A DNA stretch of 64,000 bases from Bacteroidota bacterium. Its GTDB lineage: Bacteria; Bacteroidota; Bacteroidia; B-17B0; Aurantibacillaceae. Below the pieces are notes generated by a model, which saw nothing but the letters and a program-made list of their open reading frames with translations, did no database searches and had not been told where the DNA came from. Shown here piece by piece: positions 1 through 43,240 of the stretch. The position numbers and the translations under genes were made by a program. The stretch's first letter is position 1. Each line of letters starts with the position of its first letter. The DNA lies in assembly GCA_030692515.1 (NCBI GenBank), contig JAUXZS010000016.1, forward strand, positions 68,313 to 132,312, read 5' to 3'.

Positions 1-531
1 GTCTTACTCACTATACCTCATGAAATAATTACCAATAAGATTTTTTTTATCAGAGGACAAAAGGTTATGCTTGATAGCGATCTTGCAGAACTTTATGAAG
101 TTGAAGCAAGAGTTTTGAATCAGGCTGTGAATAGAAATGAATACCGATTTCATGAGGATTTTAAGTTTAAACTTAGTGAAGAAGAATGGAACAACTTGAA
201 ATCACAATTTGTGACATCAAGTTGGGGAGGAAGGCGAAAGTTGCCCTTTGTATTTACTGAACATGGAGTTCTAATGCTTTCAAGTGTATTAAACAGTAGA
301 AGAGCGATTGATTTGAATATTCTGATTATGAGAGTTTTTTCACATATCCGCAAAATGCTTACAGAAAACACCGAATTGCGTTTAGCAATTGAAAAGCTAG
401 AAAAGAAAAGTGATAATCACTCTAAAAACATAGAGCTGGTTTTTAAATATCTCGACGAACTCCTCGAGAAAAAAGAAAACAATATCCCACGCAAATCTAT
501 TGGGTATAAATTACCAAATAAGAAAAGCTAA
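1..531 (+). CDS. ORF6N-domain (KilA-N-like) DNA-binding protein; the 5' end runs off the left edge of the window
   Basis: Frame 1 is open from base 1 (...IFFIRGQKV precedes the first in-frame ATG at 67). The blocks IRGQKVMLDSDLAELY, RNxxRFxxDFKFKLS and GGRRKLPFVFTEHGVLMLSSVL match the ORF6N family as I recall it. Stop TAA at 529-531. Confidence 0.7.
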   Translation, partial: VLLTIPHEIITNKIFFIRGQKVMLDSDLAELYEVEARVLNQAVNRNEYRFHEDFKFKLSEEEWNNLKSQFVTSSWGGRRKLPFVFTEHGVLMLSSVLNSRRAIDLNILIMRVFSHIRKMLTENTELRLAIEKLEKKSDNHSKNIELVFKYLDELLEKKENNIPRKSIGYKLPNKKS

Positions 532-4784: not shown

Positions 4785-5096
4785 TCAATTGTAAATCTAA
4801 TCTAATTTTATTTATCACTAAAATTACTTGGGCGTAAGGCTAGAAAATTACATAACTCTTAAAATATTTTACATTATTCACGCATTTTATGCTTTTGCCT
4901 TCACATCCGTAAGTCGTATGTGTATAATACCTATCATAAGCTCTTTAATGAACCATTGATTGAACTCTTTTGAATCCTAAGCCCTGACCTACTAAATTTT
5001 ATTTGAATTTATTCGTCTACAAATCCTTTCCATTAAATTAACATTAGTTTAAATTAATTTTTTACAACTTTATGCTACATAAATTGTTTAGTAAAG

Positions 5097-35299: not shown

Positions 35300-36937
35300 T
35301 TATTTCTTTAGTAAAAATCCTTTTTCAAGCGAGATAGTTTCTTTATCGCTTTGTTTAAGTTCAATGTTTTCGGAAATTTCTTTAAATCCTTTTTTGTTGA
35401 TGGTGATTTTATAATTACCGCCTTTTAAGGTGAAAAAATATTCGCCGTTTTCATTGGTGTTAGTTGAAGAAATTTCAGCACCTGAAGCATCAGTTAAAAC
35501 TACAGCCACATCCGGTAAACCATAACCTTCGTAGCCATCACGTATTGTTCCTTTTAAAATACTAAGACCATTACTCGTTTTCTTTTTTCCATCTTTTTCA
35601 AGAATAGCATAGTCTTTTAAATTAATTTTATAAATATCGCTTCCACCTAAACCACCACCGCGATTACTCGAAACATAAGCAAATTTTGCGTCTGCGCTAA
35701 TTGTTAATTGTCCTTCTTTTGAAACACTATTAATTGGGTAGCCTAAATTAACTGGTGTTGACCATTTTCCACCTTCAAATACGGTTTTAAACACATCATA
35801 ACTCCCCATACTTTCTGGTCGATCAGAGCAAAAGAACAATGTTTTACCATCAGGAGCTAAAAACATTCCTGCCTCATCAAATGTTGTGTTCACCTCCGAA
35901 CCAAGATTTTCAGGCTTGCCCCATTCTTTTTTATTTATGCGCTGTACCATCCAAATATCGCTACGACCAAAGCCTCCTGGCCTTTCGCTTGTAAAAAAAT
36001 ATTTTTTGCCATCAGGGGAAACACAGGCGCCTCCTTCCCAATAGCTAGAGGCAATTGGCTTACCCATAGGCTCAGGAGTTCTCCATTTACCATTATTTAC
36101 TTTACTAACAAATACATCTCCTCCTCGAGAGTTTTTATCATTGATATCATTTTTATAAATAAAAATTTGTTTTCCATCGGCAGAAATACTCGTAACAGCG
36201 TCATGAGCCTTTGTATTTATAGACCCTGGGACTTCAGAAGCTTTTCCAAAACCCTTTGTTAACGAATCATAATTTGCAATATATATATCTTCAAAATAAT
36301 TACCATCACCCTCAGCATCAACTTCTGAGGCTGTGGTTTCGGGTCGTCTAGTCGTAAAAACCAATTTACTGCCATCTGCTGTTATACATGGATTTTTATC
36401 ATCATAAACGCTATTAATATCAGAACCTAAATTAATTACTTCAACATCCAAAGGACTAGCCGCCATAGCTTTTGCATTTTGAGCTTGTTTTAGAAAAATA
36501 TCTGCGTCCTCAACACTTTCTTTGTTTTGCTTAGGGGCCGTTTTAAATTCAGTAAATTCTTCAATAGCTTTGTCGAAATCACTTTCTGAATGCGCAATTT
36601 TCCCTAAAATTAAATGATTTTCTGGTTTAACAATTGAGTTTGCATCTATGCTTTTTAAAAGAAATTCTTTTGCTTTATCAATTTGATTTAAATTGTAGTA
36701 ACAAAATCCTATATAATGTAAAACAGAGGCATCTTTCGGATTATTTTTTTCCACTTCACGATAGGTGTTTAATGCCCCAACATAATCCCCAGCATACATT
36801 TTTTGTTTTGCAAGAATCATTTTTGCAGCATCGCCAGCATCAGTAAATACATTTGTTTTTTTATCTTTTTTTGTAGTCTCATCTTGACCAAAAGATGCAA
36901 TTGAAAGTGCTAAGAATAGAATTAAAAATTTCTTCAT
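35300..36937 (-). CDS. secreted TPR plus TolB-like (PD40 beta-propeller) plus carboxypeptidase-regulatory-like domain protein
   Basis: Signal peptide and N-terminal TPRs. Repeated PD40-like units (ADGKQIFIY, PDGKKYFFTSERPGG, PDGKTLFFCSDR, ADAKFAYVSSNR). C-terminal GTIRD...V.L.D..G......TNENGEYFF. Confidence 0.6.
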   Translation of the reverse strand: MKKFLILFLALSIASFGQDETTKKDKKTNVFTDAGDAAKMILAKQKMYAGDYVGALNTYREVEKNNPKDASVLHYIGFCYYNLNQIDKAKEFLLKSIDANSIVKPENHLILGKIAHSESDFDKAIEEFTEFKTAPKQNKESVEDADIFLKQAQNAKAMAASPLDVEVINLGSDINSVYDDKNPCITADGSKLVFTTRRPETTASEVDAEGDGNYFEDIYIANYDSLTKGFGKASEVPGSINTKAHDAVTSISADGKQIFIYKNDINDKNSRGGDVFVSKVNNGKWRTPEPMGKPIASSYWEGGACVSPDGKKYFFTSERPGGFGRSDIWMVQRINKKEWGKPENLGSEVNTTFDEAGMFLAPDGKTLFFCSDRPESMGSYDVFKTVFEGGKWSTPVNLGYPINSVSKEGQLTISADAKFAYVSSNRGGGLGGSDIYKINLKDYAILEKDGKKKTSNGLSILKGTIRDGYEGYGLPDVAVVLTDASGAEISSTNTNENGEYFFTLKGGNYKITINKKGFKEISENIELKQSDKETISLEKGFLLKK

Positions 36938-37022
36938 AATAATTAAATTGTAATGAAATCTAAAATACGATTAAATTTTAAGATAGATTACACTTTTTAG
37001 GAAAGTTTTTCTAACTTTACTT

Positions 37023-38633
37023 ATGAAATTAATTCAACGACTATTTTTAACTTGTTTTTTAGTGTGCATTTATACTGCAACAACAAAAGCGCAGTCTCCA
37101 TCTTGGGCGCAAGACATTGCCCCAATATTATATTCAAATTGTACAAGTTGTCATCATACTGGCGGCTTAGCGCCTAACTCCTTAATGACGTTTACAGATG
37201 CGTTTAATTATAGATTTATGATTAAACAATATGTAGATAATAACTCTATGCCACCATGGCCGCCAGATGCGCAATACAAGCACCTAGCATTTGAGCGCAT
37301 ACTTTCTGCCTCCGACAAAAATAAAATTAGCCAATGGGTTTTAGGTGGCGGACAGCAAGGAAATGCCGCTTCTGCGCCAACACCACCCACCTACACCAAC
37401 AGTACTACCCAATTAAGTTCAATTGATTTTACTGGAAAAATGCAAAATTATATGGTTAATACTGCAAGCGACCTTTATCGTTGCTTCATTATTAATACCA
37501 ATTTTTCGGTAGATAAATTTGCAGCTGAAATTGAAGTAATACCGGGAAATTCAGCCATAGTGCATCACGTTTTAGTTTTTGAAGATACCACCGCGTTAAT
37601 AAAACAAAAAGATAGCGCCGATGCGGGCGCAGGATACACTTCTTTTTTTGGGACAGGTAGCAACGACTCGAGATTAATTGGAGAGTGGGTTCCAGGAACT
37701 GCACCTATAAAATTTCCTAATTTAATGGGTGTTAGATTAAGAAAAAATACCAGAATCGTATTACAAATTCATTATCCACAAGGAACTTATTTAAAATTAG
37801 ATAGTACAAGGGTTAATATAAAATTTGCCGCTAATACTGCATCGCCATTTTTTAGAGAAGTTTTTTTAGCTCCATTACTAGCTGAAAGCAATCTAATTAA
37901 CGGGCCTCTTTCTATTCCTCCGAATGTAGTAAAAACTTTCACTTCCGTTATGACTGTTACTACAACAGTAACGCTTCCTTATCCTGCTATAACATTACTA
38001 TCCATTGCGCCACACATGCATTTAATTGGGGACAAAATGAAAGTTTTTGGGCTTGAAAATTCTACAAACGATACCATGCCTTTAATTAATATTCCAAAGT
38101 GGGATTTTAAATGGCAGGGTATTTATAATTTCAGAAACCCCATCAAAGTGCCATTGGGTAGTAAATTAGTTTGTCAATCCGCATACGATAATCGTTCAAG
38201 CAATTTAAATAATCCAAACTCTCCACCTATTACAGTTAATCAAGGTGAATCAACATCTGATGAAATGAATTTAGTATTTTTTGCATTTACTTATTATTTT
38301 CCTGGTGACGAGGATATTATAATAGATAATTCGCCAGTTGTTGGGATAAACGAGCTACAAAAAAGTATTGTAAATACTGTGCAATTATTTAATGTATTTC
38401 CAAATCCAGCAAAAAACCAAGCGCAATTAAATTATTTTGCGCCATCAAATTATTTAGCAAAGGCTAAAATCATTAATATGGAAGGTAAGATTTTGAAGGA
38501 GTGGCCTACTAATATGCAAGAAGGTTATGGCGCAATTAATTTAAATATTGAAGGATTACCTAAGGGCCAATATTTTTTAACTATAGAAACAAAATCATTT
38601 ACAAAAACAAAACAATTTATTATTTATGAATAA
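37023..38633 (+). CDS. secreted copper type II monooxygenase-like protein (PHM/DBH fold) with N-terminal CxxCH cytochrome-c-like module and T9SS C-terminal sorting domain
   Basis: Signal peptide, then CTSCHH...MPPWPP. PHM-like ligand blocks AIVHHVLVFE, VLQIHYP, APHMHLIG and STSDEMNLVFF. C-terminal FPNPAKNQAQL...GQYFLTIET Por/T9SS domain. Confidence 0.7.
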   Translation: MKLIQRLFLTCFLVCIYTATTKAQSPSWAQDIAPILYSNCTSCHHTGGLAPNSLMTFTDAFNYRFMIKQYVDNNSMPPWPPDAQYKHLAFERILSASDKNKISQWVLGGGQQGNAASAPTPPTYTNSTTQLSSIDFTGKMQNYMVNTASDLYRCFIINTNFSVDKFAAEIEVIPGNSAIVHHVLVFEDTTALIKQKDSADAGAGYTSFFGTGSNDSRLIGEWVPGTAPIKFPNLMGVRLRKNTRIVLQIHYPQGTYLKLDSTRVNIKFAANTASPFFREVFLAPLLAESNLINGPLSIPPNVVKTFTSVMTVTTTVTLPYPAITLLSIAPHMHLIGDKMKVFGLENSTNDTMPLINIPKWDFKWQGIYNFRNPIKVPLGSKLVCQSAYDNRSSNLNNPNSPPITVNQGESTSDEMNLVFFAFTYYFPGDEDIIIDNSPVVGINELQKSIVNTVQLFNVFPNPAKNQAQLNYFAPSNYLAKAKIINMEGKILKEWPTNMQEGYGAINLNIEGLPKGQYFLTIETKSFTKTKQFIIYE

Positions 38634-38991
38634 AATTTCTTTTTTATTTTCCGGTTTATTTTTAATTTTTTTAGTGGCTGGTTGCGAAAAAAAAGTTGGT
38701 AAAACAGCGCCTGTTGTTGCTGCAGCTTTTACTTGCGATAGTATTAAATATGCAAGCCATATACAACCAATAATTACTAAAAACTGTGCTATTAGTGGTT
38801 GTCATATTTCAGGATTTTCATCTGGAGATTTTACAAGTTATGCTGGTTTAAACACTAAAGTAGTACCCGGGAAATTTAAACTTAGAGTTTTTGATTCCCC
38901 GAATAATCCTATGCCACCAAGTGGGCAATTGCCTCAAGCGCAATTAGACAGTATTAAATGTTGGTTAGATAGAGGAGCGCCAAACGATTAA
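38626..38991 (+). CDS. small lipoprotein with cytochrome-c-like module (CX4CH ... MPP)
   Basis: Lipobox LVAGC. IQPIITKNCAISGCH...NNPMPPSG...IKCWLDRGA parallels the N-terminal module of the upstream gene. 8-nt overlap with that gene. Confidence 0.45.
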   Translation: MNKISFLFSGLFLIFLVAGCEKKVGKTAPVVAAAFTCDSIKYASHIQPIITKNCAISGCHISGFSSGDFTSYAGLNTKVVPGKFKLRVFDSPNNPMPPSGQLPQAQLDSIKCWLDRGAPND

Positions 38992-39094: not shown

Positions 39095-41737
39095 TTAAAG
39101 TGAAGCTAATTGCTCCTCAATAGATTTTATTTTATTTAAAGCGTCACTTTCTTTTTTACGTTCCACTTCAATAACTTCTGGTTTTGCATTTGCAACAAAA
39201 CGTTCGTTAGATAATTTTATTTGAACAGATTTTAAGAATCCTTTATTATATTCTAATTCTTTTGCTAAGCGATCTTTTTCTTCAGCAACATTAATATTTC
39301 CGGTTAATGGAACAAAAAATTCTGCATTTAAAACCATAAAACCAAATGCACCTTCTACTTTTTCTTTTGTATAACTATACGACGATAAATTCGCCAATTT
39401 TATTATCACGCTATCAAAGTCGCTGTAATGCTCACCAACATCCGATTTTTCTTTTACATCTAATTTTTCTTTTGGTGAAATATTTTTTTGTTGACGAATA
39501 TTTCTAACCTGAGTAACAACTTCTTTTACAACTTCAAAAGCTTTTAAAGTTTCTTGATTAATTTTTCTAACCTCAGGCCATTCTGCAACAATAATGCAAT
39601 CCTTTTCAGTTCTGTCTTGGGTTAAATGCCATAACTCTTCGGTAATAAATGGCATCCAAGGATGCATGATCTTTAATAATGATTCAAAGAAATTAATTGT
39701 AGCATTAAAGGTTGTTTTATCAATTGGTTGCGATTTTCCATCAATAAATTCTGGCTTAATAATTTCTAAATACCAAGCACAAAAATCATCCCAAACTAAT
39801 TTGTAAGTTGTCATTAACGCATCACTCATTCTGTATTTAGAATAATGATCATTAATAATTTCTAATTGCTCTGATAATTTATTTTCGAACCAATTAATGG
39901 CAGTCTTTGATGCTTGAGGTTGTTCAACATTCCCTATCTCAAAGCCTTGTATTAAACGAAAAGCATTCCATACTTTATTTGCAAAATTTCTTCCTTGCTC
40001 ACAATAACTTTCATCAAACATTAAATCGTTTCCTGCAGGTGAGCATAAAAGCATGCCAACACGAACACCATCGGCTCCATATTTTGTAATCAATTCTAAA
40101 GGATCTGGTGAGTTACCCAAACTTTTACTCATTTTACGTCCTTGTTTATCGCGAACAATCCCGGTTAAGTAAACATTATTAAAGGGTTTTAAGCCTGTAT
40201 ATTCTTTTCCTGCAATAATCATTCTGGCAACCCAGAAAAATAAAATTTCTGGCGCTGTTACTAAATCATTTGTTGGGTAATAATATTTTAAATCTGCATT
40301 TGCATTTTCCCATCCATTTTTAATTATGTTTGGATCGAATACTGTTAATGGCCATAACCAAGACGAGAACCATGTGTCCAAAACGTCTTCATCCTGTTTT
40401 ATTTCTTCAGCTTTTATTGTTGCGTTATTTATTTTTAATAGTTCAAAGGCTTCTTCTTTTGTTTTACAAACAACTGTATTTCCTTTATTATCGTACCATG
40501 CCGGAATTTGTTGTCCCCACCATAACTGACGGCTAATACACCAATCATGCACATTTTCCATCCAATGCTTATAGGTATTAATAAATTTTTCGGGAATTAG
40601 CTTTACATCATTATTTAACACAGCTTCTAAAGCGGGCTTACTAATGTCTTCCATTTTTAAAAACCATTGCATGCTCAGGCGTGGCTCAATAACAGCATCT
40701 GTGCGTTCGCTATAACCAACTTTGTTTTTTATTTCTTCAATCTTCTCTATTAAACCCTGCTCTTGCAAATCTTTTGTTATTTGTTTACGACAAATAAATC
40801 TATCTAAACCTATATATGCTCCAGCAGCTTCGCTAATTTTTCCTTCGGGCGTTAATACATCAATAGTTTGCAGCTTGTGTTTTTGGCCTAAATTAAAATC
40901 ATTAATATCATGTGCCGGAGTAACCTTCAATGTTCCCGTTCCAAATTCTTTATCTACATAATCATCATAAATAATAGGTACAACTCTATTTACAATTGGT
41001 ACAATTACATTTTTTCCTTTTAATGATAGGTAACGTTCATCGGTGGGATTAACGCACACAGCAACATCGCCCATAATAGTTTCAGGACGAGTAGTTGCAA
41101 CAGTTATATATTCGTTTGTATTTTCTATTTTATACTTTACATAAACTAATTTGCTATTTGTTTCTTTATGGATTACCTCTTCGTCACTAACGGCAGTTAA
41201 ACCTAGAGGGTCCCAATTAACCATCCGAACGCCTCTATAAATTTGTTTTTTCGTATATAAATCAATAAAAACATCTAAAACAGCATCACTTAAATCCGGG
41301 TCCATTGTAAAACGTGTTCGGCTCCAATCACAACTTGCGCCTAAATATTTTAATTGTTCTAAAATAATTCCGCCATACTTTTCTTTCCAAACCCAAGCAT
41401 GTTTTAAAAATTCTTCGCGCGATAAATCTGCTTTTTTAATTCCCTGGTCGGCTAATAGTTTTACAACTTTTGCTTCTGTTGCAATACTTGCATGATCAGT
41501 GCCCGGTACCCAACAAGCATTAAACCCAAGCATTCTGGCTCGACGAATTAATACATCTTGTATGGTGTTATTAAGCATGTGACCCATATGTAGGACACCA
41601 GTTACATTTGGCGGAGGGATTACTATAGTATATGCCTTGCGCTGATCGGGTACTGACTTAAAAAAATCTTTATCCATCCAATAAGGGTACCACTTGGTTT
41701 CAGCCTCTTTTGGATTGTATGTTTTTGCTATCTCCAT
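39095..41737 (-). CDS. valS: valine--tRNA ligase
   Basis: Class I HIGH ([11 protein letters not shown]) and KMSKS (RKMSKSLGN) motifs, a CP1 editing region and a C-terminal coiled coil. 880 aa. Confidence 0.93.
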
Positions 41738-41855: not shown

Positions 41856-42359
41856 ATGAAAAAATTAATTTTAACATTAGGATTAGTAGCAGGCTTAACT
41901 GCTTTAACTTTTGCACAAGAAGTACACGGTACAGATGATGGTCATGGTCACGGAGCGGCAACAGATAATGTAGCGCCTACAAGCTTAGCTGATATTAAAT
42001 TAGATAAGACTACCCATGATTACGGTAATATTAAACAAGGAGATAATGGTGAATGTGAGTTTAAATTTACAAACAACGGTAAAGAGCCTTTAGTAATTAC
42101 TAATTGCCAAGGAAGTTGCGGTTGTACAGTACCACAATGCCCTAAGGAACCAATTTTACCTGGTAAAAGCGGTGTTATAAAAGTGAAGTATGATACACAA
42201 CGTGTTGGTGGCATTTACAAAACTGTAACCGTTAATTCAAACGCAAAAAGTGGCGTGCAAACTTTAACTATTAAAGGTAACATTGATGCAAAGCCTGTTG
42301 AAGAAGCTTTTCCTCAAAACCCAACACCACAAGGTGCTCCAGTTGAAAAGAAAGGTTAA
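41856..42359 (+). CDS. DUF1573 domain protein with His/Gly-rich N-terminal linker
   Basis: Signal peptide, then HGTDDGHGHG. DUF1573 core YGNIKQGD..ECEFKFTNNGKEPLVITN..GSCGCTVP...PILPGKSGVIKVKYDT...G...KTVTVNSNA. Confidence 0.7.
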   Translation: MKKLILTLGLVAGLTALTFAQEVHGTDDGHGHGAATDNVAPTSLADIKLDKTTHDYGNIKQGDNGECEFKFTNNGKEPLVITNCQGSCGCTVPQCPKEPILPGKSGVIKVKYDTQRVGGIYKTVTVNSNAKSGVQTLTIKGNIDAKPVEEAFPQNPTPQGAPVEKKG

Positions 42360-42378
42360 TAACTAAAATTTAAAAAAA

Positions 42379-42819
42379 ATGAAAAAGCTACTTTCTTTAA
42401 TTTTTTTGGTACTAGGTTTAAGTTTTGGATTAAATGCCCAAGAGTCTACTATTCCTAATCCTGATCCTAATGCTCCTGACATAAAATTTGAGAACGAAGT
42501 TTTAGATTATGGAGTAATAGAATATGATGCTAACGGACTTCGTGAATTTAAATTTACAAATACAGGAAAAACACCATTAACAATTACTTCTGTTACAGGA
42601 GAGTGTGGTTGTACCGCAACTACTATTGATGGTAAACCAGGCTGGCCGCAAGAACCAATTTTACCAGGAAAAGGTGGCGTAATTAAAGTAAAATATGACA
42701 CTAAACGTGAGGGTCGTTTTGAGAAAAACGTTACCGTAACGTCTAATGCTAAATTTGCTACAAAAAAAATACGTATTAAAGGTGAAATTAAAGCTAAACC
42801 CGTAACAGGTGAAAATTAA
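42379..42819 (+). CDS. DUF1573 domain protein
   Basis: Signal peptide and the same core: YGVIEYD...FKFTNTGKTPLTITSVTGECGCT...PILPGKGGVIKVKYDT...VTVTSNA. Confidence 0.7.
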   Translation: MKKLLSLIFLVLGLSFGLNAQESTIPNPDPNAPDIKFENEVLDYGVIEYDANGLREFKFTNTGKTPLTITSVTGECGCTATTIDGKPGWPQEPILPGKGGVIKVKYDTKREGRFEKNVTVTSNAKFATKKIRIKGEIKAKPVTGEN

Positions 42820-43240
42820 TATCACATTAAATTTAAAAAATCCTCTTGGTTTATCTAAGGGGATTTTTTGTTTTAATAGAGTCCTATTTTATTTATTATT
42901 CATTGTAACTTCTGTTTGTTCTGCACAAGCAAAAATGGAAATAAAAGACGCAAAGAAAAATTTTGGTATTGTGAAGAAGGGAGAGATTATTAAACTCGAA
43001 TATTCTTTTACAAATATAGGTAACCAACCATTACTTATTTCTGAAGCTGAAGTAAGTTGCTCATGTACCACCGTCGATTTTCCAAAACAACCAGTTGCTC
43101 CAAATCAAAGCGGAGTTATTGTTGTAAATTTTGATACCAAAACAGTGTATGACCGGCAAGATAGGGTTGTATTATTAAAAACTAACGACCCTAAATCTCC
43201 TGCAAAAATAAGATATAAGGGAATTGTGCTTAGAAAATAA
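42809..43240 (+). CDS. DUF1573 domain protein (divergent third copy; start uncertain)
   Basis: FGIVKKGE...YSFTNIGNQPLLISEAEVSCSCT...PVAPNQSGVIVVNFDT. The only in-frame ATG upstream of the signal-like segment is 42809, which puts a terminator-like hairpin inside the first 20 codons. Confidence 0.55.
   Translation: MKINITLNLKNPLGLSKGIFCFNRVLFYLLFIVTSVCSAQAKMEIKDAKKNFGIVKKGEIIKLEYSFTNIGNQPLLISEAEVSCSCTTVDFPKQPVAPNQSGVIVVNFDTKTVYDRQDRVVLLKTNDPKSPAKIRYKGIVLRK
42834..42870 (+). terminator. terminator-like hairpin 15 nt after the stop of the second DUF1573 gene, inside the annotated 5' end of the third
   Basis: AUCCUCUUGG-UUUAU-CUAAGGGGAU: a 10-bp stem including two G.U pairs, followed by U6 and preceded by A6. 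Confidence 0.6.

Follow-up and report, generated by a model that had tools for sequence, protein, structure and literature searches.

A cytochrome c-like module joined to a PHM/DBH-fold copper monooxygenase homologue with a T9SS sorting signal in freshwater Bacteroidota

The locus and its two genes

The window, by which we mean the whole stretch of 64,000 nucleotides analysed here, comes from a freshwater Bacteroidota genome. The locus of interest consists of two open reading frames on its forward strand, one encoding a protein of 536 residues (hereafter the enzyme) and the other a protein of 121 residues (the lipoprotein). A sequence-only reading of the same DNA had placed both frames at the positions and on the strand listed in Table 1, and we found them there. 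The motifs that it quoted are all present in the translations, namely NCTSCHH, NSMPPWPP, AIVHHVLVFE, VLQIHYP, APHMHLIG, and STSDEMNLVFF in the enzyme and CAISGCH and NPMPP in the lipoprotein. The same goes for the 8-nt overlap between the genes, which implies translational coupling.

Around the operon, a scan for sigma-70 consensus promoters and terminators returned no more sites than shuffled sequence did (Bacteroidota promoters fall outside that scan), and an Rfam scan of the whole window gave no match. The NCBI entry MDP3555898.1, a 536-residue protein of the same 90% identity cluster, is named only "T9SS type A sorting domain-containing protein".

Table 1. Features of the two-gene locus, in window positions
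Feature	Positions	Strand	Evidence
Upstream intergenic region of the two-gene operon	36938..37022	+	DNA alignment: kept in syntenic L088 and in enzyme-deleted L086
Enzyme gene, 536 aa: cytochrome-c-module / PHM-DBH-like dicopper monooxygenase / T9SS CTD	37023..38633	+	Pfam, NCBIfam, family profile, AF2 model
Predicted Sec signal peptide, residues 1-23, cleavage before Gln24	37023..37091	+	Hydrophobic helix 2-20 in model; Q24 conservation
N-terminal class-I-type cytochrome-c-like module, residues 24-112; C40-T-S-C43-H44 nt 37140-37154, M76-P-P nt 37248-37256	37092..37358	+	
Gly/Pro/Thr-rich linker, residues 113-135, from putative haem module to catalytic core; sequence GGGQQGNAASAPTPPTYTNSTTQ	37359..37427	+	
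CuH domain, residues 136-268; His181/His182 nt 37563-37568, His250 nt 37770-37772; Tyr152 and Gln248 also conserved	37428..37826	+	PF01082, residues 139-252
CuM (catalytic) domain, residues 278-424; His331/His333 nt 38013-38021, Met415 nt 38265-38267; Gln365 also conserved	37854..38294	+	PF03712, residues 297-421
Type A T9SS C-terminal sorting domain, residues 458-534; preceded by disordered linker 441-448	38394..38624	+	PF18962, TIGR04183, PDB 8glj chain D, model
8-nt overlap ATGAATAA, enzyme stop codon / lipoprotein start codon	38626..38633	+	
Lipoprotein gene, 121 aa; predicted lipobox L-V-A-G-C20 nt 38674-38685; C54-A-I-S-G-C59-H60 nt 38785-38805; M96-P-P nt 38911-38919	38626..38991	+	

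The copper monooxygenase core

The central part of the enzyme has the fold of peptidylglycine alpha-hydroxylating monooxygenase (PHM) and dopamine beta-hydroxylase (DBH). In Pfam, it scores 31.4 bits against Cu2_monooxygen (PF01082, cut-off 30) and 29.3 bits against Cu2_monoox_C (PF03712, cut-off 23), and at E <= 0.1 these domains are found in 70 and 66, respectively, of 70 family members. A PDB search with the single sequence returned the T9SS C-terminal domain (CTD) match alone, and PHM and DBH were reached only by a profile of the 70 sequences (DBH 4zel, E 1.3e-6; PHM 1opm, E 3e-5), which aligns the six copper ligands column by column. Herein, H181/H182/H250 fall on the CuH ligands H107/H108/H172 of PHM and H331/H333/M415 on its CuM ligands H242/H244/M314; the CuH numbering of PHM agrees with the literature (PMC6123673). 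In addition, the PHM residues Y79, Q170, and Q272, which are related to electron transfer, align with Y152, Q248, and Q365, invariant in the enzyme family.

The AF2 model of the enzyme (pLDDT 89.5) points the same way, as the best 31 PDB matches in Foldseek are all PHM or DBH (E 2e-14 to 2e-11, TM about 0.6-0.68 on the target), at a sequence identity to PHM of ~16%. The ten predicted metal-ligand residues (the six copper ligands plus C40, C43, H44, and M76) do not vary among 112 homologues with identities as low as 42%. A genome scan added 86 genes from 80 other genomes, almost all of them metagenome-assembled genomes (MAGs), and the one exception among these genes is a single paralogue with H182L. 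Profile and model confirm the enzyme as a homologue of the PHM/DBH-fold dicopper monooxygenases with a complete predicted set of CuH and CuM ligands. The earlier claim that all six ligands occur in the right order and context is thereby upheld, since the family profile sets each of them on a PHM position and both Pfam domains exceed the gathering cut-off.

The cytochrome c-like module and its relatives

Ahead of the core lies a module in which C40, C43, H44, and M76-P77-P78 are invariant in the 112 close homologues and the 86 genes taken together (198 sequences, 35-100% identity). In the AF2 model, its helices (residues 28-39, 57-72, and 96-107) flank the CxxCH motif and occupy the C-terminal end of the module. 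The linker that follows is modelled less well than the rest of the enzyme (pLDDT 74 at residues 121-130). Against Pfam, the module of the enzyme itself scores 18.8 bits for Cytochrome_CBB3, below the cut-off of 27; across the 70 family members, the weak matches are almost exclusively to haem-c families (Cytochrome_CBB3 in 49, best E 1.2e-4; Haem_bd in 25). A module profile searched against the PDB mostly ranks cytochromes c6, c4, and CcoP first, at a nonsignificant E of about 0.5. The earlier description as a class-I-cytochrome-c-like module agrees with the invariant CxxCH...MPP pattern and the helical layout, but it stands on weaker ground than had been implied, as the thresholds of the curated cytochrome models are not reached.

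The downstream protein is a predicted lipoprotein, with a signal peptide ending in a lipobox. Across 26 sequences, C20, C54, H60, M96, and P97 never vary, and C59 is missing from one. On its own it has no direct match in Pfam, and its AF2 model is mediocre (pLDDT 70), with cytochrome c6 as the best Foldseek match at an E of about 3, which is not significant. Its profile, on the other hand, collects 13,169 representative proteins, many of which carry 2-8 tandem modules. These multi-module relatives match the profile at E 1e-30 to 1e-73 and exceed the Pfam cut-offs for Cytochrome_CBB3 (up to 95 bits), PSCyt1 (up to 153), and Cytochrom_C (up to 61); their best PSCyt1 stretches fall on CX4CH modules. 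A common pattern runs through the family, I-x-P-I...C-x(2 or 4)-C-H...M-P-P...W-[IVL]-x-x-G-A, and on the strength of these profile matches we regard the lipoprotein as a one-module member of the very large PSCyt1/cbb3-type cytochrome c family. The module of the enzyme appears as a divergent "MPPWPPD" variant of the PSCyt1/Cytochrome_CBB3-type module.

The two modules of the locus are clearly homologous as judged by profile alignment (hhalign, enzyme module against lipoprotein family: 97.4% probability, E 1.4e-11), in line with the earlier remark that the lipoprotein repeats the module of the enzyme. The CX4CH spacing, which had been called unusual, turned out to be ordinary: it interchanges freely with CXXCH at the same module position, both are mixed within single polypeptides, and orthologous lipoproteins have a canonical CNSCH. 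We also considered CX4CH as a special mark of the lipoprotein and rejected this, as the relatives of the lipoprotein use CX4CH and CXXCH about equally often.

Export and sorting

The C-terminal domain that had been read as a Por/T9SS sorting domain scores well above the cut-offs of both relevant models (Por_Secre_tail, PF18962, 43.8 bits against 27; TIGR04183, 43.9 against 23), is found in all 70 family members, matches a T9SS CTD of known structure (PDB 8glj chain D), and forms a beta-sandwich at residues 454-534 of the AF2 model. At the other end, Q24 is at least 90% conserved in the homologues and is Gln in 63 of the 86 genes; an N-terminal Gln after cleavage is typical of exported Bacteroidota proteins. 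With a CTD and an N-terminal Sec signal, the enzyme is a predicted T9SS type A cargo. It is not unique as haem-c-type T9SS cargo, since P0225, a cytochrome with seven modules of the same family, likewise has a T9SS CTD.

Surface lipoproteins of Bacteroidota carry an acidic export signal. The mature N-terminus predicted here, C-E-K-K-V-G-K, is unlike such a signal, and the lipoprotein may therefore stay in the periplasm with the enzyme outside. As an extracellular protein, the enzyme would not be connected to the respiratory chain in any obvious way.

Distribution and pairing of the two genes

We count members of the enzyme family in at least 592 species genomes of Bacteroidota, and the family comprises more than 2,400 sequence clusters. 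Its carriers are aquatic Bacteroidota, including Saprospiraceae and Chitinophagales, and the names of the carrier MAGs include the Sediminibacterium, Flavipsychrobacter, and Taibaiella groups. No neighbouring gene is conserved across the 80 loci (the commonest neighbour cluster occurs in 10, at no fixed position), and the neighbourhoods give no hint of a substrate. In a search of RNA and DNA runs, the locus was found in only seven, all from groundwater or freshwater metagenomes; their kind was guessed to be DNA in each case, so the run search provides no evidence of expression. We found no characterised bacterial PHM/DBH-like enzyme or cytochrome fusion in the open-access literature, which is not proof of absence; the earlier statement that no bacterial member of this fold has been characterised biochemically agrees with this.

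Pairing with the lipoprotein is confined to one subclade. The lipoprotein gene lies downstream of the enzyme gene in two of 80 species-level loci and is absent from the other 78, and about 40 lipoprotein clusters stand against the more than 2,400 of the enzyme. Within the subclade, the 8-nt overlap and the synteny are kept at L087/L088, L089/L090, and L091/L092; the overlap is conserved in at least four related genome lineages, and a more distant pair of enzyme and lipoprotein is found in a Sediminibacterium MAG (L003). Related mini-lipoproteins adjoin quite different genes (DUF5777, YceI, PSCyt1, and others).

At one syntenic locus, L086, the enzyme gene is missing and the shared upstream region now precedes the lipoprotein gene. 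We read this as an internal deletion because the enzyme ATG, its last codons, and the upstream region remain. The same remnants led us to reject the reverse history, in which an enzyme gene was inserted beside a resident lipoprotein gene.

Proposed mechanism and alternative readings

Our main reading, to which we give a probability of roughly 0.55, is that the locus encodes a T9SS-exported monooxygenase of the PHM/DBH type that is fed electrons by its own N-terminal haem module, with the lipoprotein as an accessory. The enzyme would be exported by the Sec system, receive its haem in the periplasm, and then be secreted or displayed on the surface by the T9SS. Its core would act as a non-coupled dicopper monooxygenase with His181/His182/His250 at CuH and His331/His333/Met415 at CuM. 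By analogy with PHM and DBH, O2 would be activated at CuM, a C-H bond of the substrate would be hydroxylated, and two electrons per turnover would enter at CuH. Their immediate donor, in place of free ascorbate, would be the enzyme's own mono-haem c-type module, in which His44 would ligate the haem proximally and Met76 distally. A flexible linker of ~25 residues would tether this module to the core, and the module could deliver the electrons in two successive one-electron transfers.

We consider such a haem-to-copper relay plausible. The sequence-only reading had spoken of a self-contained hydroxylase with a built-in relay; this leaves the ultimate source of electrons unexplained and passes over the fact that a secreted enzyme and a lipoprotein may sit in different compartments. 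The claimed coupling to the lipoprotein holds for this locus, with its overlap and its homologous module, but does not extend to the enzyme family as a whole. The lipoprotein is best seen as an accessory, lineage-specific partner that is not integral to the system and possibly serves as a donor that re-reduces the haem of the enzyme. The most likely substrate is some organic compound or polymer that occurs outside the cell in freshwater or groundwater habitats, and not a glycine-extended peptide that binds in the way it does to PHM.

That last point bears on whether the enzyme could instead be a true bacterial PHM orthologue, which would act on secreted peptides or on peptides from the environment and hydroxylate their C-terminal glycine (for amidation or oxidative trimming), with a cytochrome replacing ascorbate. 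The fold and copper ligands are indeed the same, PHM supplies the closest solved structures, and the carriers of the family belong to aquatic Bacteroidota (Saprospiraceae, Chitinophagales) that are commonly taken to degrade proteins and polymers. In PHM, the substrate is anchored by its carboxylate and backbone through Arg240, which clamps the carboxylate, Asn316, and Tyr318. Of these, only the last is retained in the family (Tyr in 69 and Phe in 16 of the 86 genes). The position of Arg240 is Ala329 in the enzyme and never Arg among the 86 genes (A 50, G 22, S 4, others about 7-10), and that of Asn316 is Leu417, with L, I, M, Q, or V in the 86 genes and mostly L, I, or M. The enzyme is not a PHM orthologue in our view because Arg240 and Asn316 are not conserved, and a peptide C-terminus bound in the PHM manner, one of the substrates suggested earlier, is unlikely. 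We found neither a PAL (lyase) domain nor a precursor-peptide gene adjoining the enzyme gene, and no conserved neighbour. Together with the low identity to PHM, this makes orthology decidedly improbable.

Two further readings concern the modules and the partner. The copper core might be active while the CxxCH...MPP modules are free of haem, serving instead in disulfide formation or in metal or ligand binding (e.g., copper handling or substrate binding), with small-molecule reductants as in PHM. It speaks for this reading that enzyme module and lipoprotein stay below every curated cytochrome threshold, that PSCyt1 is a name taken from a motif and has to our knowledge not been characterised biochemically to date, and that haem on the lipoprotein presupposes a Bacteroidota haem lyase that accepts CX4CH. 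Yet the Cys-x-x-Cys-His motif and the downstream Met are invariant family-wide, the helices are arranged in a way that agrees with class I cytochromes, the two spacings replace each other at one position with CNSCH in orthologous lipoproteins, and relatives exceed the Cytochrome_CBB3 and Cytochrom_C cut-offs; we hold the haem-free reading to be unlikely. Slightly better, though still rather doubtful, are the prospects of an obligate two-protein redox pair in which the lipoprotein is the dedicated donor. The conserved overlap and synteny in several genomes, the Sediminibacterium pair, and the homology of the two modules would all suit it, but the rarity of the pairing, the imbalance in cluster numbers, the loss of the enzyme alone at L086, the varied neighbours of related mini-lipoproteins, and the possible separation by compartment all argue against it.

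Taken further, and more tentatively, our main reading could describe a novel class of oxidative enzymes that Bacteroidota deploy outside the cell, in which a covalent haem of the enzyme's own replaces ascorbate, T9SS display brings it to a recalcitrant substrate (a polymer, a humic or phenolic amine, or an N-acyl compound) much as in CDH/LPMO systems, tandem arrays of paralogues reflect substrate range, and a small lipoprotein cytochrome provides the link to the cellular electron supply in some lineages. We see this as a possibility with the odds against it.

Comparison with known systems and perspective

As databases name such proteins only after their T9SS sorting domain, an oxidative activity that is common outside the cells of Bacteroidota in freshwater, groundwater, and wastewater may escape notice. 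Should the substrate be a polymer or some other organic compound that is abundant, the enzyme would be relevant to carbon turnover and biocatalysis. For the PHM/DBH enzymes, which are textbook examples of copper monooxygenases, the route by which electrons reach CuH and then cross the gap to CuM is still debated. If the fusion of core and haem proves true, it would offer a soluble bacterial system in which this electron path could be triggered and followed optically. In the known PHM/DBH structures, the two coppers are more than 11 Å apart and solvent-exposed (PMC4846438).

The lipoprotein is most readily compared with the multi-module lipoproteins of the PSCyt1 (PF07635) and Cytochrome_CBB3 (PF13442) type. 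It shares their motif pattern but has a single module, and both it and the enzyme module score under the Pfam cut-offs.

For the enzyme, PHM (1PHM, 1OPM, 1SDW) is the best structural match, with the same two-domain beta-sandwich core, six copper ligands, and counterparts of Y79/Q170/Q272. Unlike PHM, which comes from the secretory granule, the enzyme is bacterial and predicted to be extracellular. It has neither the Arg240/Asn316 clamp nor a PAL domain, and it gains a cytochrome-c-type module at the N-terminus and a T9SS CTD at the other end. The partner cysteines of PHM are missing as well, and a lone conserved Cys154 stands at the position of PHM Cys81.

DBH (4ZEL), with tyramine beta-monooxygenase, is the best match by sequence profile (E 1.3e-6) and shares the order of an N-terminal accessory domain, CuH, CuM, and a C-terminal domain. 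The module of the enzyme takes the place of DOMON, yet it is helical and of the c type, with a predicted covalent haem, whereas DOMON is a beta-sandwich. In keeping with this, no DOMON domain was matched in Pfam by the enzyme or the family members, and the model shows helices in the N-terminal region. The C-terminus is a T9SS sorting signal instead of a dimerisation domain, and nothing points to phenylethylamine substrates. Cores of the PHM/DBH class are known in fusion with different accessory domains; for DOMON domains, the ligands are haem or sugar (PMC4846438).

A functional analogy is offered by secreted small haem domains that serve copper enzymes. CjX183, a secreted c-type cytochrome domain of Cbp2D from Cellvibrio japonicus, reduces copper LPMOs (PMC8981238). 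Like the cytochrome domain of cellobiose dehydrogenase, it passes single electrons to an extracellular copper monooxygenase, replaces ascorbate, and limits uncoupled H2O2. CjX183 is carried by a protein other than its acceptor, a mononuclear histidine-brace LPMO; in the arrangement proposed here, the acceptor would be CuH of a dicopper core within the same polypeptide.

Locus and Gene Neighborhood

The enzyme and the mini-lipoprotein are encoded by two plus-strand ORFs, which share 8 nt, ATGAATAA, and are flanked on both sides by minus-strand housekeeping blocks. Between them, the two translations contain all motifs quoted in an earlier sequence-only reading, which had described a T9SS-sorted copper monooxygenase with a CxxCH module, coupled to a CX4CH lipoprotein. 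The window has a G+C content of ~32%, and its DNA is also present in groundwater and freshwater metagenomes. All close relatives share the synteny of the divergent TPR/PD40/CarboxypepD_reg gene and the operon, and nothing ties both functionally. The DUF1573 trio keeps its position beside valS in all syntenic relatives.

Features of the locus (window nucleotides) and of the enzyme (residues)
Feature	Position	Strand	Details
pepT-like, clpX-like, and dxs-like genes	one flank of ORF pair	-	
TPR + PD40 (TolB-like beta-propeller) + CarboxypepD_reg gene	35300-36937	-	545 aa; divergent neighbor
Enzyme gene	37023-38633	+	536-aa ORF
Mini-lipoprotein gene	38626-38991	+	121-aa ORF
valS	39095-41737	-	other flank of ORF pair
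Three consecutive DUF1573 (HYDIN/VesB-like Ig) paralogs	41856-43240	+	143-167 aa; Cys-rich motifs
Signal helix	N-terminus		AlphaFold model
Helical module	residues 28-107		AlphaFold model
Linker, lower confidence	after helical module		AlphaFold model
Two beta-sandwich domains	residues 136-268 and 278-424		AlphaFold model
Cu2_monooxygen	residues 139-252		Pfam, 31.4 bits (cut-off 30)
Cu2_monoox_C	residues 297-421		Pfam, 29.3 bits (cut-off 23)
Disordered stretch	residues 441-448		AlphaFold model
Beta-sandwich CTD	after disordered stretch		AlphaFold model
Por_Secre_tail	residues 458-534		Pfam, 43.8 bits (cut-off 27)

Copper Core and Sorting Domain

Judged by its sequence, the enzyme is a member of the PHM/DBH superfamily. 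A profile of 70 full-length homologs, searched against PDB sequences, matched human DBH at E 1.3e-6 (4zel) and rat PHM at E 3e-5 (1opm among other entries). In the profile alignment, PHM His107/His108, His172, His242/His244, and Met314 correspond to His181/His182, His250, His331/His333, and Met415, respectively; the PHM numbering was derived from the chain offset, and the CuH set was cross-checked with PMC6123673. The AlphaFold model built on the same homologs reached a mean pLDDT of 89.5 and a pTM of 0.71, and its Foldseek comparison with the PDB returned PHM/DBH structures at all places from 1 to 31 (E 2e-14 to 2e-11, TM 0.6-0.68 normalized on PHM). The earlier PHM/DBH identification thus withstands scrutiny, as the His and Met residues do map on CuH and CuM at the level of both sequence and fold. 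NCBIfam confirmed the type A T9SS domain (TIGR04183).

Cys154 (nt 37482-37484) is a lone cysteine at the position of PHM Cys81, kept in 111 of 112 and 80 of 86 sequences. Its PHM partner cysteines are apparently missing, as the enzyme family has no further conserved Cys outside CxxCH.

The Enzyme Family: Conservation and Spread

Across 112 full-length homologs (≥42% identity), both the heme-type motifs (C40, C43, H44, M76, P77, and P78) and the copper ligands (H181, H182, H250, H331, H333, and M415) are invariant. Likewise, the ten metal-ligand residues are invariant in the 86 genes of the best 80 loci, with a tandem paralog carrying H182L as the lone exception. Y152, Q248, and Q365, the counterparts of PHM Y79, Q170, and Q272, which are implicated in inter-copper electron transfer, are invariant in the family as well.

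The enzyme is nevertheless an ortholog of neither PHM nor DBH. PHM holds peptidyl-glycine through Arg240, Asn316, and Tyr318, of which Tyr318 alone is retained, as Tyr or Phe; in the 86 genes, Arg is never found at the Arg240 position (A/G/S instead), and Asn316 is replaced by L/I/M. Lacking both residues, the enzyme is no PHM ortholog, and a peptide substrate bound as in PHM, left open in the earlier reading, is unlikely. Nor, without a DOMON domain, is it a DBH ortholog.

A word-indexed search yielded more than 2,400 enzyme clusters, and nearly all of the best 120 combine Cu2_monooxygenase with Por_Secre_tail. When each species was represented by a single genome, at least 592 genomes proved to encode a relative; the best 80 of these are almost all MAGs and nearly all labeled Bacteroidota (among them Chitinophagales, Saprospiraceae, Flavobacteriales, and Sphingobacteriales). 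No neighbor gene is conserved across the best 80 loci. Some genomes carry tandem arrays of two to four paralogs with 60-70% mutual identity, which suggests diversified specificity. Such arrays are found at L008:6001-12605 (four paralogs), L019:6010-11005 (three), and L027:3204-6331 (two), where all copies contain the heme motif and the copper ligands, except for one L019 copy with His182 changed to Leu.

The fold and both module types were already known, and existing database entries for the sequences bear uninformative titles ('hypothetical', 'T9SS type A sorting domain-containing protein', 'Copper type ascorbate-dependent monooxygenase'). What is new is the strictly conserved architecture, running from a c-type cytochrome through the PHM/DBH core to the T9SS CTD, together with its scale. 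A search of open-access papers and preprints turned up nothing published on bacterial members.

The Mini-Lipoprotein and the N-Terminal Module

The mini-lipoprotein combines a lipobox (L-V-A-G-C20) with C54-A-I-S-G-C59-H60 and M96-P-P; across 26 relatives, C20, C54, H60, M96, and P97 never vary. Its C-E-K-K start is unlike the acidic surface-export signal of Bacteroidota, so that it may face the periplasm rather than the surface. Taken alone, it has no Pfam match, and its AF2 model is of middling quality (pLDDT 70), with nonsignificant matches to cytochrome c6. Run against 1.84 billion representatives, its profile gave 13,169 matches at E <= 1e-3, of which 4,465 reach E <= 1e-10, and many of the proteins have 2-8 tandem copies of the module. 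Since such multi-module relatives exceed the Pfam cut-offs of Cytochrome_CBB3 (up to 95 bits), PSCyt1 (up to 153 bits), Cytochrom_C, and PccH, the mini-lipoprotein belongs, on sequence grounds, to a very large PSCyt1/cbb3-type cytochrome c family, of which it is a single-module representative.

Its CX4CH spacing, earlier called unusual, turns out to be a common alternative: the best 150 of the 13,169 proteins contain 203 CXXCH and 182 CX4CH motifs (and a few CX3, CX5, and CX6), often mixed in single chains. All six mixed chains inspected begin with a module of longer spacing, five of them with CX4CH, and in multi-module relatives the best PSCyt1 stretches fall on CX4CH modules. A Sediminibacterium MAG encodes an enzyme-adjacent orthologous lipoprotein with a canonical C-N-S-C-H. 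One seven-module relative, encoded in an Ignavibacteria MAG, carries a T9SS CTD at its C-terminus. The profile matches P0161-P0310 (e.g., P0168, P0225, and P0250) hold 1-8 tandem cytochrome-c-like modules of ~100 aa each, and ~40% of the best 150 of the 13,169 proteins have a lipobox-like start.

For the N-terminal module of the enzyme, direct matches are faint: Cytochrome_CBB3 scores below threshold on residues 33-87 (18.8 versus 27 bits), individual scans of the 70 homologs gave Cytochrome_CBB3 in 49 and Haem_bd in 25, all weak, and the profile of the module alone retrieved mainly cytochromes c6, c4, and CcoP from the PDB, yet at E ~0.5. The CxxCH and the downstream Met-Pro-Pro are invariant, and in the AlphaFold model helices flank CxxCH and close the module in the style of class I cytochromes c. 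The decisive, though indirect, link is homology to the lipoprotein family, which is itself tied to bona fide cytochrome models. Here, hhalign (probability 97.4%, E 1.4e-11) aligned I-x-P-I...N-C, MPP on MPP, and W-x-x-x-G-A-P on W-x-x-x-G-A-P, with the two extra CX4CH residues as an insertion.

Coupling of Enzyme and Lipoprotein

The coupling of the two genes noted earlier recurs in relatives but is not general. The identical 8-nt overlap and the synteny (TPR/PD40 protein, enzyme, lipoprotein, valS, and three DUF1573 genes) recur in the related loci L087/L088, L089/L090, L091/L092, and the partial L093, whereas among the best 80 loci the lipoprotein lies downstream of the enzyme only in L001 (76% identity) and L003 (56%). 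In L086 (GCA_020063765.1), synteny is intact, but the stretch between the TPR and lipoprotein genes measures just 139 nt (4862-5000). Compared with window 36938-37030 and 38610-38640, it retains the conserved upstream region, the enzyme ATG, now followed by TAA, and the last five enzyme codons ATT ATT TAT GAA TAA. With these remnants in place, L086 shows an internal deletion of ~1.5 kb that took in the whole enzyme gene and spared an intact lipoprotein gene.

Distant mini-lipoproteins adjoin unrelated genes, namely DUF5777 (twice), YceI, a two-module PSCyt1 protein, and, near a CCP_MauG gene, a 504-aa protein with faint beta-propeller matches, which suggests other small redox modules. Loci of this kind include L084:4264-6292, L085:5001-7030, and L082:4060-6837. 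Because of the two in 80 loci, the L086 deletion, and the unrelated neighbors elsewhere, the lipoprotein resembles a small electron carrier of general use, taken up by one subclade, more than an integral subunit. Overall, the observation behind the sequence-only reading holds and its interpretation does so in part, the exceptions being CX4CH, the generality of the lipoprotein coupling, and a PHM-like peptide substrate.

Proposed Mechanism and Precedents

By analogy with PHM and DBH, O2 activation and substrate hydroxylation would occur at CuM, while two electrons per turnover would enter at CuH. Their immediate donor would be the invariant, flexibly tethered cytochrome module, its heme being attached in the periplasm ahead of T9SS export. 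We consider a functional dicopper site highly probable and a heme-carrying N-terminal module likely; the heme-to-CuH relay itself we put at a probability of about 0.6. For this clade, a role of the lipoprotein as physiological donor is possible but less likely than not.

DBH receives its electrons from two ascorbates and has its coppers more than 11 Å apart, and its DOMON domain belongs to a class able to bind heme (PMC4846438); the cytochrome module of the enzyme holds the place of this domain. A further precedent is a c-type cytochrome domain that a bacterium secretes: it reduces copper LPMOs, and less uncoupled H2O2 arises than when ascorbate is the donor (PMC8981238).
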